Sequence record: MT682709.1
Source of the DNA: Escherichia phage vB_EcoM_SP1
Reading direction: 5' to 3' (one strand)
DNA: 64,000 nt
Part shown: positions 3,952 through 12,422 of the stretch, in pieces
Layout: the number at the start of each line of letters is the position of its first letter
Numbering within the stretch: position 1 is the first letter of the stretch
Program-made: the position numbers and the translations under genes
Notes under the pieces: model-generated
What the model was told of the DNA's origin: nothing
Databases searched by the model: none
What the model saw: only the letters and a program-made list of their open reading frames with translations

Positions 3952-4047
3952 AAAAATTTTTTCACAAAACTGTTTACATCCCTGTTCTTCCATGGTACTA
4001 TATCAATATCAACTACTGATACAGAAAACAACTTGGAGAATGAAATG
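3952..4047 (+). repeat. dispersed early promoter-leader cassette, copy A
   Basis: TTTTCACAAAACTGTTTACATCCCTGTTCTTCCATGGTACTATA... is near-identical to 47485-47570 and similar to 20150-20235 and 21605-21665; GTTTAC 3972-3977, TACTAT 3996-4001. Confidence 0.6.
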
Positions 4048-4308
4048 GATAATTACGGCGAACTGTTCAACTTCTTTATGAAATGCGTTTCAGAAGATTT
4101 CGGTCGTACAGTTAATGATATTAAAGTTATCGGTCCTGACCATCCGATGTTTGAAACTTACGCAGTAATGGGTAATGAAGACGGTCAGTGGTATACTGTA
4201 AAAGTTGTGATTAACATGTTCACTGCTGAAGGTTATGTTAAACTGTCTTCTAAAGTTTACCATGATAACGACGAAATCGCAGAAGAATATTTCAATAATA
4301 TGAAATAA
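4045..4308 (+). CDS. hypothetical acidic protein (87 aa)
   Basis: ATG 4045 after GGAGAA (track ORF starts at in-frame TTG 4033). Confidence 0.55.
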   Translation: MDNYGELFNFFMKCVSEDFGRTVNDIKVIGPDHPMFETYAVMGNEDGQWYTVKVVINMFTAEGYVKLSSKVYHDNDEIAEEYFNNMK

Positions 4309-4339
4309 GTTTACACAGGCTCATGATTGAGATATTATG
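4309..4339 (+). promoter_or_regulatory. T4-type early promoter
   Basis: GTTTAC 4309-4314, TATTAT 4334-4339. Confidence 0.5.
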
Positions 4340-4363
4340 AGCCTATAATTTGAGGAAAATATT

Positions 4364-4756: not shown

Positions 4757-5350
4757 ATGAACACACTGAAGAAAATTGTTGAGTTTATTCGCACTAAACT
4801 TGGTTCTGCTATGGCTAAAAATCTATCTGTTGAAGAACAGTATACTGCTGCAGCAGCAAAACTGCTTGATAAAATTAAAGATCTAAAAACTGCTTCTATT
4901 AAATCTATTAATGAAGAAAAACGTATTCGTGAACTTGTTATCGAAAAGAATCGACAAGCCGAATCAAAAGAGCGTGAAATTCGCAAGCTTCTTTCCGAGG
5001 GTCAAGATGTAACAATGCATGCTAAACTCGGTTTGCTATATCGTCGAACAGCTGAACAGTTGACTACTAAGGCTGATGGTTATGCTGAAATGCGAATTGA
5101 AATCGCCAAGAAAGTAGTTGAGTTAGATGATGCTCGCCAAGAACTTGCAGTTAAATTGGAATATATCCGTGAAACTCGTGCGGCAAATGCCCTTGGAATT
5201 AGTACTGCTGATGATGTAGTTGAAATCGCAGCGCTAACTAAGGTTGATATTGAAGATACTCTTGCTCGAGTTGAAACCTTTAACGGTAATATTTCTGGGG
5301 TTGAAACCACTTCTGCTGATGTTCAGGAATATATTAATTCTCTGAAATAA
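4757..5350 (+). CDS. coiled-coil protein (197 aa)
   Basis: ATG with AAGGAAA RBS; heptad-rich, charged helical sequence; followed by a GGGGC-TTCG-GCCCC hairpin at 5357-5370. Confidence 0.6.
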
Positions 5351-5391
5351 TGATAAGGGGCTTCGGCCCCTATTACTTGGAGTAAATAGGA

Positions 5392-6000
5392 ATGAGAATG
5401 CAAAATGATTTCAATTCAATGTTTGAAGAGTTCCAAAGACAGGTTGATGTTCCAGACCAATTACTGAATGCTCTTAAACGTATGGCAGAAGGACGTAATT
5501 ACTATTGGGGGTCTTCATATGAAACTGATGAAAGTCTTTCTGGAAGATTTTATAGAGGTAAAAAGTCTTTAATACGCCCTGGAATACTCATTAAAAGTAT
5601 TGAATCAATTCATTCATTGACATGTGATTTTGATGTTGAATTTACTGATTTCATTTCTCCTGAATGGACAGTTTGTTATTTAAATGACGATTATGATTAT
5701 CTTGGCATTTATAGTTTAAGTGACGCGGGGTTTAGACGTAATTTACAAAAGTCAAATTTATTTTATATTGATACTACGGTAAAATTTCAGGGAAAGAAAT
5801 ATTTCTTTACTCTTATAGTTGACTCTGAAACAAAATATGAAAATAAGCGTATTCTTAGTAAAAAGAATATCTTGACTATTATTGATGATCTTTTTGATAA
5901 ATTCGTGGAAAATCCCAGTTTTGAAAGCGATTTATTACTAGAAAAATTTGTTAAGGAATGTAGAGAATATGTCAAAGCCATCACTATACCTTCCAAGTAA
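5392..6000 (+). CDS. hypothetical protein (202 aa), C-terminal motif KFVKECREY
   Basis: ATG 5392; shares its C-terminal motif with the next three genes. Confidence 0.6.
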   Translation: MRMQNDFNSMFEEFQRQVDVPDQLLNALKRMAEGRNYYWGSSYETDESLSGRFYRGKKSLIRPGILIKSIESIHSLTCDFDVEFTDFISPEWTVCYLNDDYDYLGIYSLSDAGFRRNLQKSNLFYIDTTVKFQGKKYFFTLIVDSETKYENKRILSKKNILTIIDDLFDKFVENPSFESDLLLEKFVKECREYVKAITIPSK

Positions 6001-6705: not shown

Positions 6706-7190
6706 TTTTAAAAACTCGCTGGTATGATTTAGATGATGGGGATGATGGCATTCCAGTTGATAGAGTTGACTGGAATGGCTGTTCCGAAGATATGAAAAAT
6801 TTGTTGATTAGGGAGTTTAGAATGGGATATCAACCAGTTAAGCCATCTACTATAACAGACGATAAATTCGTGTGTATTCATAATGGTCGCGCTAAGTTAA
6901 CGAACGCTGATTGGTTCACAGATAAAATTATGATTCTGTGGTATATTATTAGTCTTCCTGTGACATCATTCGTATTTTACTTTTTTATAAAAAATCCAAT
7001 GGACAGAATAGGAGATTGGATTCTTTTAACCATACTTGTTAATATTTTTACAGCAGCAATATTATCTGGGATATGGTACACGTTCATTGAAATGCCATGG
7101 CGGCTACGCAGACAACAAAAGATTTTTGATGAAAAGAAATATACTCAAAATTTAAATAACTTTATCACCGAATGCAGGAAATTAAAATGA
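6702..7190 (+). CDS. membrane protein (162 aa), C-terminal motif NNFITECRKLK
   Basis: ATG 6702 overlapping previous stop; TM segments; paralogous C-terminus. Confidence 0.55.
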   Translation: MILKTRWYDLDDGDDGIPVDRVDWNGCSEDMKNLLIREFRMGYQPVKPSTITDDKFVCIHNGRAKLTNADWFTDKIMILWYIISLPVTSFVFYFFIKNPMDRIGDWILLTILVNIFTAAILSGIWYTFIEMPWRLRRQQKIFDEKKYTQNLNNFITECRKLK

Positions 7191-7627
7191 AAACATTATC
7201 AGCTGGTATTATCTTTATGACAGAAGATAAAGATTTATTCATGGGACGGGTTACTGGTTCTCGTAAGCCTGGAATGATGGCACATCGCTGGGATATTCCA
7301 AAGGGCCGTGTAGAAAATTCTGATTTGAGCGCACTAGATGCAGCACGAAGAGAATGCTTAGAAGAGACCGGTTTTAGCAATTATAATCCAGACCTTCTAG
7401 AAGACCTAGGTGTATTTAAATATTCTAGTAATAAAGACTTACAGCTGTTTTATTATACGATTCCAGTAGAGCATGAGATGTTTAGAAATTGCCATTGCGA
7501 GTCTTATTTTGAAAATAAAGATGGTGTTATGATTCCAGAGATGGATGCTTTTGCTCTTATTCCTCGTACTCAGTGGCAATATGTGATGGGTCCTTCACTT
7601 TATCGAATAATGAACAGCCTCTTTTAA
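7187..7627 (+). CDS. nudE: Nudix hydrolase NudE (e.1)
   Basis: Nudix box GRVENSDLSALDAARRECLEETGF; ATG 7187 with AGGAA RBS; immediately upstream of e as in T4. Confidence 0.85.
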   Translation: MKTLSAGIIFMTEDKDLFMGRVTGSRKPGMMAHRWDIPKGRVENSDLSALDAARRECLEETGFSNYNPDLLEDLGVFKYSSNKDLQLFYYTIPVEHEMFRNCHCESYFENKDGVMIPEMDAFALIPRTQWQYVMGPSLYRIMNSLF

Positions 7628-8430
<803 letters not shown>

Positions 8431-8431
8431 T

Positions 8432-8462
8432 GTTTACTTCCTCCAAGGACTTTGATACTATA
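8432..8462 (+). promoter_or_regulatory. T4-type early promoter
   Basis: GTTTAC 8432-8437, GATACTAT -10 region. Confidence 0.5.
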
Positions 8463-8488: not shown

Positions 8489-8902
8489 ATGACTCGTATC
8501 AATTTAACACTTGTTTCTGAACTGACCGACCAACATCTTATGGCTGAGTATCGTGAATTACCACGCGTATTTGGTGCAGTCCGTAAACATGTTCAAAACG
8601 GTAAACGTGTAAAGGATTTTAAAATCTCTCCAACATTTATCTTAGGCACAGGTCACGTAACATTCTTTTACGACAAACTCGAATTTTTACGTTTACGTCA
8701 AATCGAGCTAATCGCTGAATGCTTGAAACGTGGTTTCAAAATCAAGGACACGACTGTCCAGGATATTTCCGACATCCCTGTCGAATTTCGTAATAATTAT
8801 GTCCCGTCCGAAGCGTCCATTGCGATAAGTCAAGCTCGCTTAGATGAAAAAATTGCTCAACGCCCTACTTGGTACAAATACTATGGTAAATCAATTTACT
8901 AA
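8489..8902 (+). CDS. denV: endonuclease V (pyrimidine-dimer DNA glycosylase)
   Basis: [31 protein letters not shown]... matches recalled T4 endo V over its full length; ATG 8489 (track begins at TTG 8477). Confidence 0.9.
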
Positions 8903-9232: not shown

Positions 9233-9811
9233 ATGAAAACGTATCAAGAATTTATTGCTGAAGCTTCTGTAGTAAAGGCAAAAGGCATTAATAAGGACGA
9301 GTGGAACTATCGTGGTGGAAACGGCTTTGACCCTAAAACTGCTCCACTTGAACGATATCTAGCCACAAAAGCTTCTGATTTTAAAGCCTTCGCTTGGGAA
9401 GGACTTCGCTGGCGTAACGATCTAAATATTGAAGTTGACGGACTTAAATTTGCTCATATTGAAGATGTTGTTGCTAGTAACTTAGATGCAGCTTTTGTTA
9501 AAGCCGACAGTGATCTTCGTCGCTGGAATTTAAAACTGTTCTCTAAACAAAAAGGCCCGAAGTTTGTGCCTAAAGCCGGTAAATGGGTCATTGATAATAA
9601 ATTAGCTAAGGCTGTCAACTACGCTGGTCTTGAATTCGCCAAGCACAAATCATCATGGAAAGGTCTTGATGCAATGGCTTTCCGTAAAGAATTTGCCGAT
9701 GTTATGGCTAAAGGCGGCTTTAAGGCAGAAATAGATACCTCTAAAGGTACGTTTAAGGACGCTAATGTTCAGTACGCTTATGCCGTTGCTAATGCAGCCC
9801 GTGGTAATTAA
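9233..9811 (+). CDS. ipIII: internal protein III
   Basis: MKTYQEFIAEASVVKAKGINKDEW... near-identical to recalled T4 IPIII. Confidence 0.9.
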   Translation: MKTYQEFIAEASVVKAKGINKDEWNYRGGNGFDPKTAPLERYLATKASDFKAFAWEGLRWRNDLNIEVDGLKFAHIEDVVASNLDAAFVKADSDLRRWNLKLFSKQKGPKFVPKAGKWVIDNKLAKAVNYAGLEFAKHKSSWKGLDAMAFRKEFADVMAKGGFKAEIDTSKGTFKDANVQYAYAVANAARGN

Positions 9812-9852
9812 TAAGGCCTAAGTATAGGCCTATTTACATTTAAAGGAAACAT

Positions 9853-10155
9853 ATGAAAACATATCAAGAATTTATTACTGAAGCGCGAGTGAGTGCAGGT
9901 AAATTAGAAGCCGCTATAAATAAAAAGGCCCATTCATTTCACGATTTGTCCGATAAAGACCGTAAGAAACTTGTAAGCCTTTATATTGACAAAGAGCGTA
10001 TTCTCGCTCTTCCTGGCGCTAATGAAGGTAAACAGGCCAAGCCTTTGAATGCTGTCGAAAAGAAAATTGATAACTTTGCTTCTAAATTCGGTATGTCTAT
10101 GGATGACCTTCAGCAAGCGGCTATCGAAGCAGCTAAAGTAATTAAAGGTAAATAA
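9853..10155 (+). CDS. ipII: internal protein II
   Basis: MKTYQEFITEARVSAGKLEAAINKKAHSFHDL... near-identical to recalled T4 IPII. Confidence 0.9.
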   Translation: MKTYQEFITEARVSAGKLEAAINKKAHSFHDLSDKDRKKLVSLYIDKERILALPGANEGKQAKPLNAVEKKIDNFASKFGMSMDDLQQAAIEAAKVIKGK

Positions 10156-10157
10156 CA

Positions 10158-10187
10158 GTTTACTTTCTCCTAAAATTGTGATAGTAT
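10158..10187 (+). promoter_or_regulatory. T4-type early promoter
   Basis: GTTTAC 10158-10163, TAGTAT -10. Confidence 0.5.
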
Positions 10188-10212
10188 ATTCATAATTACT
10201 TAGAGAGGTAAA

Positions 10213-10276
10213 ATGACTCGATGAAAAAATTTTAATGAAGCCACACTGGTATAAGTATTAAGGCAAAAATATTTAC
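10213..10276 (+). pseudogene. denV deletion remnant (start codon fused to diverged 3' end)
   Basis: ATGACTCG (denV codons 1-3) joined to ATGAAAAAATT...ACTGGTATAAGTATTAAGGCAAAAATATTTAC, alignable to the 3' end of intact denV at 8848-8899; reads M-T-R-stop. Confidence 0.6.
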
Positions 10277-10427
10277 ATTCAAATAACATGGGAACAACCT
10301 GGACCTCATGATTCTATGAGGGATTCCCGCCAACCTGTAATAAGGTCGAGCCCAAGTGCGGTAATGGGTAAATACAGAAATGGACAATTCATGTGCCATG
10401 GAATGGCCCAAATTTAGAGAGAATAAA

Positions 10428-10967
10428 ATGAGAACATTTTTAACTGGACCTTATCTATCCCTGATGAATGCTTTTACACACCATTCTGATGCTAGAGTAG
10501 AAGAAATTTGTAAAAACGATTATATCCCACCATTTGAAGACTTACTCAAACAGTATTGCACACTTCGACTAGATGGTGGACGTCAATCCGGTAAATCAAC
10601 TGCAGTAACTAATTTTGCCGCTAATTGGTTGTATGACGGTGGAACAGTTATTGTTCTTTCTAATACTTCAGCTTACGCTAAAATTTCTGCGGGCCACATT
10701 AAAAAAGAGTTTTCTCGTTATTCTAGCGATGATATTCGATTCCGCTTATTTACCGATTCTGTCCGTAGTTTTATCGGTAATAAAGGAAGCAAGTTCAGAG
10801 GTTTATCGCTTTCGCGGATTTTGTATATAATCGATGAGCCTGTTAAATCTCCTGATATGGATAAAATTTACGATATTCATATTGAAACTGTGCACCACTG
10901 TTGCAATAGTAAATGCTGCATTGGTGGTATTACTCGTCCACAGTTTTTCATAATCGGAATGCAATGA
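10428..10967 (+). CDS. P-loop NTPase (Walker A GGRQSGKST, Walker B ILYIIDE), 179 aa
   Basis: ATG 10428 after GAGAGAATAAA leader (track begins upstream at 10380); Walker motifs. Confidence 0.55.
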   Translation: MRTFLTGPYLSLMNAFTHHSDARVEEICKNDYIPPFEDLLKQYCTLRLDGGRQSGKSTAVTNFAANWLYDGGTVIVLSNTSAYAKISAGHIKKEFSRYSSDDIRFRLFTDSVRSFIGNKGSKFRGLSLSRILYIIDEPVKSPDMDKIYDIHIETVHHCCNSKCCIGGITRPQFFIIGMQ

Positions 10968-11885: not shown

Positions 11886-12144
11886 AGACATTAAAGGCTA
11901 TAAGCCACATACTGACGATAAAATCAGTAAAGTGAATGCTATCAAAGATGCTGAAGTTCGTTTAGGACTTATCTTTGATGCTTTATATGATGAATTCTGG
12001 GAAGCGCTAGATAATTGTGAAGACTGCGAATTCGCGAAGAATTATGCTGAAAGTCTCGATCAGTTAACTATTGCTAAAACGAAACTCAAAGAAGCCAGTA
12101 TGTGGGCTTGTCGTGCTGTGTTCCAACCAGAGGAAAAATATTAA
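11878..12144 (+). CDS. hypothetical acidic protein (88 aa)
   Basis: ORF overlapping neighbours in operon style. Confidence 0.5.
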
Positions 12145-12422
12145 TGGCCCAATTAAGCGCAGGGTTTGGTTATGAGTATTATACTGCCCCTCGTCGTGTA
12201 TCTGTTGCTCCTAAGAAAATTCAAAGTCTTGATGATTTCCAGGAAGTAATTCGTAACGCTTTCCAGGACTATGCGCGTTATCTTAAAGAAGATTCACAGG
12301 ACTGTCTCGAAGAAGATGAAATTGCTTACTATACGCAGCGTCTTGAACAGCTTAAAAACCTACATGAGGTCCGTGCAGAAGTTTCAAAGTCTATGAATAA
12401 ATTGATTAGATTTAAAGAATAA
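12144..12422 (+). CDS. hypothetical protein (92 aa)
   Basis: ATG 12144 (TAATG overlap) after GAGGAAAAATA. Confidence 0.5.

Follow-up and report, generated by a model that had tools for sequence, protein, structure and literature searches.

Introduction

The denV gene of bacteriophage T4 encodes endonuclease V, a pyrimidine-dimer DNA glycosylase, and it is dispensable in the laboratory. The T4 genes are arranged in the order e-ipIII-ipII-denV-vs.8, and a spacer that starts with GGGAACAACCTGG lies directly 3' of denV. T-even phages have hyperplastic regions and a polymorphic internal-protein locus, in which genes with T4-type early promoters are inserted, swapped and lost (PMC2839356, PMC4122927). 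Promoter-early stem-loop (PeSL) cassettes have been described (PMC4122927; Repoila et al., 1994, as cited in PMC2839356 and PMC4122927), and the T4/PST early-promoter consensus is TTTACW-N17-TAYWAT (PMC4122927). Furthermore, experimental evolution of T4 yielded microhomology-flanked deletions, including loss of ipIII, under a headful-size constraint (PMC9391042).

Here, we describe a denV relic in a T4-like phage. It descends from a gene of the same family as T4 denV (PF03013, Pyr_excise), lies in the same slot, ipII-denV-vs.8, and has a homologous early promoter. In contrast to T4 denV, it lacks the region of the Pfam domain and is out of frame, and its parent allele is 77% identical to T4 endonuclease V in protein. 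Below, denV-1 denotes the T4-type allele and denV-2 an intact, diverged denV allele found in other T4-like phages.

Results

A denV relic in the canonical denV position

The window analysed here, a 64,000-nucleotide stretch of Escherichia phage vB_EcoM_SP1 (MT682709.1), is a genome segment of a T4-like (Tevenvirinae) phage and is 96% identical to phage 132 over 24 kb. The genes around the relic all lie on the + strand, and vs.8 is followed in the window by vs.7 and then by vs.6, a GrcA homologue:

7172-7627, + strand, nudE
7664-8152, + strand, e (lysozyme)
8149-8430, + strand, internal-protein-like gene of 93 aa, here called IP98
8489-8902, + strand, intact denV of the T4 type (denV-1), 137 aa
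8909-9169, + strand, second small internal-protein gene, here called IP86
9233-9811, + strand, ipIII
9853-10155, + strand, ipII
10213-10282, + strand, denV relic, between ipII and vs.8
10428-10967, + strand, vs.8 homologue, the first gene 3' of the relic

Since T4 has the order ipII-denV-vs.8 and the same spacer after denV, the relic occupies the canonical T4 denV position. It is flanked by ipII or the early promoter on one side and by the spacer and vs.8 on the other, as is the denV gene of phages ZCEC14, fFiEco06 and T4. The intact denV of the window is not in this slot; it takes a second position between two internal-protein genes, 1.7 kb upstream of the relic. Over the 161 nt that surround the relic, phage N2 is 100% identical to the window.

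The resident intact denV matches Pfam Pyr_excise (PF03013) with 53.4 bits against a cutoff of 23, and its protein is identical to T4 endonuclease V at 125 of 137 residues (91%). It keeps, along with the domain, Thr2, Arg3, Arg22, Glu23 and Arg26, the residues whose catalytic role is well established in T4 endonuclease V. The gene has its own promoter, TTTACT (8433-8438) and TACTAT (8456-8461) separated by 17 nt. A third denV-like gene was also considered. The protein in the vs.3 slot of phage HX01 (positions 4906-5205 of locus L080), which has an equivalent at 12144-12422 of the window, is named 'pyrimidine dimer DNA glycosylase' in RefSeq; this candidate was rejected and the label is probably an annotation error, because neither the HX01 protein nor that of the window matches Pyr_excise.

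Sequence and reading of the relic

The relic and the signals around it comprise the following features:

10159-10187, + strand, early promoter of the dead denV, TTTACT-17 nt-TAGTAT, read from the sequence (hexamers at 10159-10164 and 10182-10187)
10205-10208, + strand, Shine-Dalgarno sequence GAGG, 4 nt 5' of the ATG, read from the sequence
10213-10224, + strand, residual mini-ORF ATG ACT CGA TGA (M-T-R-stop), a product of the frameshift that the deletion caused
10215-10220, + strand, deletion junction with the one remaining GACTCG, a 6-bp direct repeat present in two copies in intact denV-2
10217-10282, + strand, 3' remnant of denV-2, codons 118-138 and the former stop, assigned by tblastn and nucleotide identity
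10283-10427, + strand, conserved spacer from the denV slot to vs.8, which follows denV directly in T4, ZCEC14 and fFiEco06

The initial annotation had placed an early promoter, a ribosome-binding site and ATGACTCG after ipII, and all three are there. ATGACTCG (10213-10220) is joined without a gap to ATGAAAAAATT (10221-10231), which is an exact match to the resident denV, as had been stated, and the M-T-R-stop reading given for the start of the relic is correct. In phages SF and TH58, the change G10220A turns the mini-ORF into M-T-Q-stop. What is left of the parent gene is codons 1-2 with two further bases, and codons 118-138, out of frame. Read in the old frame, the remnant gives LDEKILMKPHWYKY*GKNIYI and aligns with 20 residues of the resident denV. 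The former stop at 10280-10282 has changed from TAA to CAA, and old codon 132 (10259-10261) is now TAA in the window; the frame is thus destroyed and secondary disabling mutations are present. The Pfam domain (residues 1-87 in the intact copy) has been deleted. A glycosylase domain with the Thr2 amine and Glu23 is absent from the relic, in which only M-T-R is left, and no product is plausible from the coding remnant.

Local alignment of the 3' segment with the resident denV gave a score of 18, compared with a mean of 9.4 (sd 1.3) for shuffled sequences (z = 6.5); none of 2000 dinucleotide shuffles reached this score, and the alignment is colinear to the very end of denV. The segment therefore does better than the shuffled controls against which the initial annotation had proposed to judge it. 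The homology to the end of denV that had been claimed is present, and it is longer than the ~17 codons assigned to it, covering the last 21 (residues 118-138) up to the former stop at 10280-10282. The ~70% identity that had been quoted is replaced by 62% over the ungapped remnant (37/60) and 77% in the block from TGGTAT to TTTAC. Identity with the resident denV at codon positions 1, 2 and 3 is 14/20, 15/20 and 8/20, respectively, as expected for diverged coding sequence. In addition, the promoter and leader of the relic align with the region 5' of the resident denV (z = 13.7, reached by 0 of 2000 shuffles). A global alignment of the relic with the resident denV, in which gap extension was cheap, scattered the match and was uninformative; local alignment with shuffles was used instead.

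An intact parent allele and a 347-bp deletion between short repeats

BLAST searches with 10140-10300 found many phages that match in two pieces under an annotated endonuclease V gene. The two pieces span 490 bp in these phages and 143 bp in the window, a difference of 347 bp. Intact denV-2 is present in the slot of the relic in ZCEC14, fFiEco06 and several other phages, as well as in contigs from IMG/VR and metagenomes. The denV of ZCEC14 and fFiEco06 has its full length of 417 nt and stands behind the same promoter, with the shared spacer and vs.8 after it. The denV-2 protein, 77% identical to T4 endonuclease V, also matches Pfam Pyr_excise. The 63-nt 3' part of the relic is identical to denV-2 of fFiEco06 at 62 positions and to that of ZCEC14 at 61 (residues 118-138), and in tblastn the remnant matched denV-2 at 20 of 21 aa (residues 118-138) versus 14 of 20 for the resident denV.

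Both ends of the relic are colinear with intact denV-2, and the middle 347 bp are missing. The 71 nt that end in ATGACTCG are identical to ZCEC14 at 67 positions, and the 80 nt from the junction on match intact denV-2 at 76-77 positions (77/80 for fFiEco06 and for the metagenomic contigs L007 and L099). GACTCG stands at nt 3-8 and again at nt 350-355 of intact denV-2 (ZCEC14, fFiEco06, L006, L007 and L099), and taking 347 bp out of denV-2, that is, one repeat and the 341 nt between the repeats, reproduces the junction of ATGACTCG with ATGAAAAAATT exactly. A length of 347 is not divisible by three, so the deletion shifts the frame and results in M-T-R-stop. Such a junction is what slippage or recombination at short direct repeats typically leaves behind. 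The initial annotation had proposed a nearly complete internal deletion in a second, diverged denV copy. The intact denV-2 of other phages, from which the relic differs by the 347 bp between the GACTCG repeats, supports this deletion; the intact denV at 8489-8902 shows that the relic is a second copy, with the refinement that the relic, and not the intact gene, sits in the canonical T4 slot.

Among the metagenome contigs, OBRH01000009.1 (L095, positions 5001-5413) carries a denV-2 in the order e-ipII-denV-2-vs.8 whose frame seems to shift close to codon 121, where the A-run GATGAAAAAATT lies. Either a true homopolymer slip or an error of sequencing may account for it.

Relic carriers and their other denV

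To find carriers, we searched 50,697 phage records with a 60-mer spanning the junction, at an E-value cutoff too strict for anything but a contiguous match. The relic junction was found in 17 of these records. The carriers are labelled Mosigvirus or Tequatrovirus and come from China, Malaysia, Thailand, India, Denmark and the USA. In the 12 carriers that were aligned, the junction is identical and the old stop has changed from TAA to CAA in every case (12/12), while old codon 132 is TAA in six and the ancestral TAC in six. Among these 12 carriers, 6 of the 67 sites of the relic vary, compared with 14 of the 303 sites of ipII, a difference that is not significant (Fisher p = 0.23), and the mean pairwise difference was 0.027 for the relic versus 0.010 for ipII. 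The direction of this non-significant difference would fit relaxed constraint; with p = 0.23, neutrality of the relic is something that we infer.

A denV gene lies between e and ipII in every carrier examined, and it is full-length in all but ECCR664. This upstream copy is a full-length denV-1 in the window, W143, HX01, NHEP29, AV117 and TH58, and a full-length denV-2 in N2, BYEP01 and SH-2. In ECCR664, a low-quality record in which vs.8 is split too, denV-1 is present as two overlapping pieces and reads frameshifted; whether this copy is intact is uncertain. In ZQ3 and SF, an endonuclease V gene is annotated immediately 5' of ipII. No carrier devoid of any denV was seen among those examined.

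In SH-2 (L175), the relic and the 3' end of the intact denV-2 have two SH-2-specific variants in common, TAATAAAG and GGTACAAG, and the relic is identical to the 3' end of its own denV-2 up to the changed base of the old stop (TAA to CAA). Over the same 59 nt, the relic of N2 has 10 differences from its resident copy. These comparisons suggest gene conversion between the relic and the live denV in SH-2. In HX01 (L080, 3038-3198) and NHEP29 (L089, 426-676), ORFs of 25-39 aa on both strands are annotated as 'hypothetical protein' over the relic and the spacer; these small ORFs are most likely spurious.

Reciprocal loss and further decay in related phages

The gene order of ZCEC14 is the mirror image of that in the window: e and IP98 are followed by a denV-1 stump of the first 41 codons, fused to the ipIII promoter, then by ipIII and ipII, an intact denV-2 and vs.8, so that the upstream copy is truncated and the downstream copy intact. 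This arrangement was found in 1 of the 50,697 records. The mirror relic lies at 2424-2546 of the ZCEC14 locus (L005), and the fusion also deletes the IP86 gene; the product names that the record gives here ('TraG-like protein', 'ssDNA binding protein') are plainly wrong.

A synthetic two-copy ancestor was compared with the 50,697 phage records, and no genome with both denV genes intact was found; the best coverage of the query, 87%, was by the relic type. None of the IMG/VR loci or metagenome contigs scanned carried two full denV copies either. Given these searches, the two-copy stage is one that we infer.

Two types of further decay were seen in relatives. In the first, that of phage 132 (60 records), a junction at a GGTAAA repeat joins the promoter to the distal half of the spacer, and the relic and half of the spacer are gone. 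In the second, the SF2-1 type (42 records), TATTTACAT(T) forms the joint between the hairpin after ipIII and the final bases of the relic. These phages have lost ipII, the promoter and nearly all of the relic, and keep the relic-specific TTCAAATAAC, which points to descent from a relic-bearing genome. The repeat pairs at the deletions measure 6 bp (GACTCG), 6 bp (GGTAAA) and 9-10 bp (TATTTACAT with or without the T).

A 14-nt motif, TATTTACATTTAAA, occurs at the end of denV-2 and 5' of the ribosome-binding sites of internal-protein genes, and it forms the joints between denV-2 and internal-protein genes in N2, SH-2, BYEP01 and the IMG/VR locus L006. The gene orders across the loci include e-denV-vs.8, e-ipII-denV-vs.8, e-IP98-denV-vs.8 and e-IP98-denV-IP86-vs.8, and on contig L007 a promoter of the denV-1 type precedes a denV-2 coding sequence. 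These varied orders show that cassettes are freely exchanged in the region, as has been described for hyperplastic regions and the internal-protein locus of T-even phages (PMC2839356, PMC4122927). IP98 is split into two ORFs in HX01 (L080, 1827-2095), and so is IP86 in SF2-1 (L082, 1316-1570) and Lutter (L083, 1117-1372); these may be further decaying genes of the region or sequencing errors.

Surviving expression signals

The promoter of the relic agrees with the T4/PST consensus at 11 of 12 positions (PMC4122927) and has a TG two bases 5' of the -10 hexamer. A generic sigma-70 scan did not call it, and it was judged against this published T4-type consensus instead. It is homologous to the promoter of the intact denV-2 in ZCEC14 and to that of the resident denV. 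The GAGG sequence is kept in 11 of the 12 aligned carriers and differs in TH58. The promoter probably still makes an early transcript into vs.8-vs.7-grcA. Since the promoter and Shine-Dalgarno sequence are kept in the phage-132 type and lost in the SF2-1 type, they would be useful at most, and not required.

With TTTACT-N17-TAGTAT, GAGG and ATG, the relic has the promoter part of a PeSL cassette. A stem-loop is absent between the ipII stop (10155) and the -35 hexamer, which are 3 nt apart, and no terminator-like site was found there; the hairpin nearest to the promoter is the one after ipIII (9814-9831).

The spacer and the start of vs.8

Because the spacer lies directly 3' of denV in T4, ZCEC14 and fFiEco06, the 3' boundary of the slot is fixed. 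The spacer is ~145 nt long and conserved from T4 to the window, with a GC content of 0.43 (over 10280-10427) versus 0.35 for the window. A search of 9800-10700 against Rfam (E <= 1) returned nothing relevant, and the predicted fold of 10270-10430 (z = 0.29 versus shuffles) gave no sign of a structured RNA.

In the T4 annotation, the spacer is read as the N-terminus of a 219-aa Vs.8. In the window, the frame of this N-terminus runs into a stop (a 33-aa ORF at 10316-10417), and it is another frame, with an ATG at 10380, that enters vs.8. Given the interrupted frame, the true start of vs.8 is probably MRTFL at 10428, and the start of T4 vs.8 may have been set too far upstream.

In Shigella phage phi25-307 (L002, 3950-4520), the distal half of the spacer is present twice, on either side of an additional gene of the internal-protein type (MKTYQEFITEV..., 3963-4340), which has entered between ipII and vs.8; it would seem that recombination uses the spacer itself as a site. 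In TH58 (L177), the tblastn match to vs.8 begins ~500 nt further 3' of the relic than in the window, and in SF (L086) a CDS of 393 nt, annotated as a hypothetical protein, covers the spacer and the start of vs.8; the vs.8 of other carriers measures 540 nt. An insertion between the relic and vs.8 is thus indicated for TH58, and for SF either an insertion or a different vs.8 gene call. These changes may be part of the reason why the 5' end of vs.8 looks so diverse in the carrier alignment.

Discussion

The relic is, very probably, a dead denV-2 in the canonical denV slot, disabled by one 347-bp deletion between repeats that was tolerated alongside a second denV after two cassettes had merged. 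In the course of events that we propose, recombination in the hyperplastic internal-protein/denV region would bring two denV cassettes into one genome. A single deletion between the GACTCG repeats, caused by replication slippage or by microhomology-mediated recombination, would then remove codons 3-117 of denV-2 and shift its frame, and the loss would be tolerated because another full-length denV lies between e and ipII. Left behind would be the early promoter, the Shine-Dalgarno sequence and a three-codon ORF, with the promoter most likely firing into vs.8-vs.7-grcA. The coding remnant would drift neutrally, and related phages would remove all of it by further short-repeat deletions. The second copy would have been gained and then lost, or the events may have run in the reverse order, and in principle an identical junction could arise more than once at the same repeats.

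It is unlikely that the relic arose first, in a genome with a single denV that was denV-null for a time and gained the upstream denV only later, so that two working copies never coexisted. This order would agree with the finding of no doubly intact genome and with the established knowledge that denV is non-essential, and the upstream copy, being denV-1 in some carriers and denV-2 in others, implies that the upstream cassette has been exchanged repeatedly. However, the truncated denV-1 and intact denV-2 of ZCEC14 derive most simply from a two-copy genome, and each carrier examined has a denV upstream, full-length but for ECCR664, none being denV-less. That the whole resemblance is due to chance or low complexity, or that the junction is an assembly artefact, has a negligible probability. 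Although the segment is short and AT-rich and there is an A-run at the junction, no shuffle out of 2000 reached its score, 62 of 63 nt match an intact allele at the same locus, and the same junction is present in 17 independently sequenced records from at least six countries.

We also consider it very unlikely that the promoter, the Shine-Dalgarno sequence and the three-codon ORF are under selection as a working leader for vs.8-vs.7-grcA, with the coding part alone being a relic. Two forms of such a leader are conceivable, a promoter cassette that includes an upstream mini-ORF and a minigene like lambda bar that affects peptidyl-tRNA turnover. In lambda bar-type minigenes, a two- or three-codon ORF has a strong Shine-Dalgarno sequence, and its translation leads to peptidyl-tRNA drop-off; the relic has this sequence form (GAGG, 4 nt, ATG ACT CGA TGA), a likeness that may serve as a lead only. 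The SF2-1 type lost the promoter along with ipII and does without it, fFiEco06 and T4 express vs.8 behind a full denV, and the third codon of the mini-ORF varies between CGA and CAA. In favour of a leader, the 12 aligned carriers retain the promoter and the Shine-Dalgarno sequence (GAGG intact in 11), and so does the phage-132 type, which dropped the relic and now has this region closer to vs.8. T4-type early promoters are, furthermore, recurrent units of the region (PMC4122927). Little credence is likewise due to a wider role, in which the stump would act as an expression signal for vs.8-vs.7-grcA and its 3' remnant would exchange sequence with full-length denV, as in SH-2. The stump would in that case be a small reservoir, or an anchor for recombination, through which cassettes of the internal-protein/denV region are shuffled further.

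Read as a dead denV-2, the relic can be set beside several known systems. Like the deletions seen in T4 experimental evolution (PMC9391042), it represents a dispensable accessory gene lost between short direct repeats from a headful-capped genome; unlike them, the deletion is natural, lies within a single gene and measures 347 bp, versus 0.7-6 kb in T4. Gene orders in the region vary as they do at the internal-protein locus with its PeSL cassettes, whereas the deletion in the relic used a 6-bp repeat inside the gene and not the promoter repeats. The pair formed by the window and ZCEC14 resembles the reciprocal loss of duplicates, the window having kept copy 1 and lost copy 2, and ZCEC14 the opposite. 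In contrast to the usual resolution of duplicates, the two copies are diverged alleles, and it was probably recombination between phages, not duplication within a genome, that brought them together, and the ZCEC14 state is known from one record.

The relic is an ordinary pseudogene and a well-documented new example of a known event; the hyperplastic nature of the region was familiar before, and the relic reveals no new mechanism or gene function. It is of value for annotation, since several records call spurious small ORFs over this stretch. Its decay can be traced unusually well across related phages, and it is a tidy example of duplicate resolution. It offers a clean trace, left in nature, of the way in which T4-like phages lose accessory genes that are redundant, from merging through disabling to erasure, with the opposite loss in a sister lineage, and a wild counterpart to the experimental evolution of T4 under the headful-size limit.
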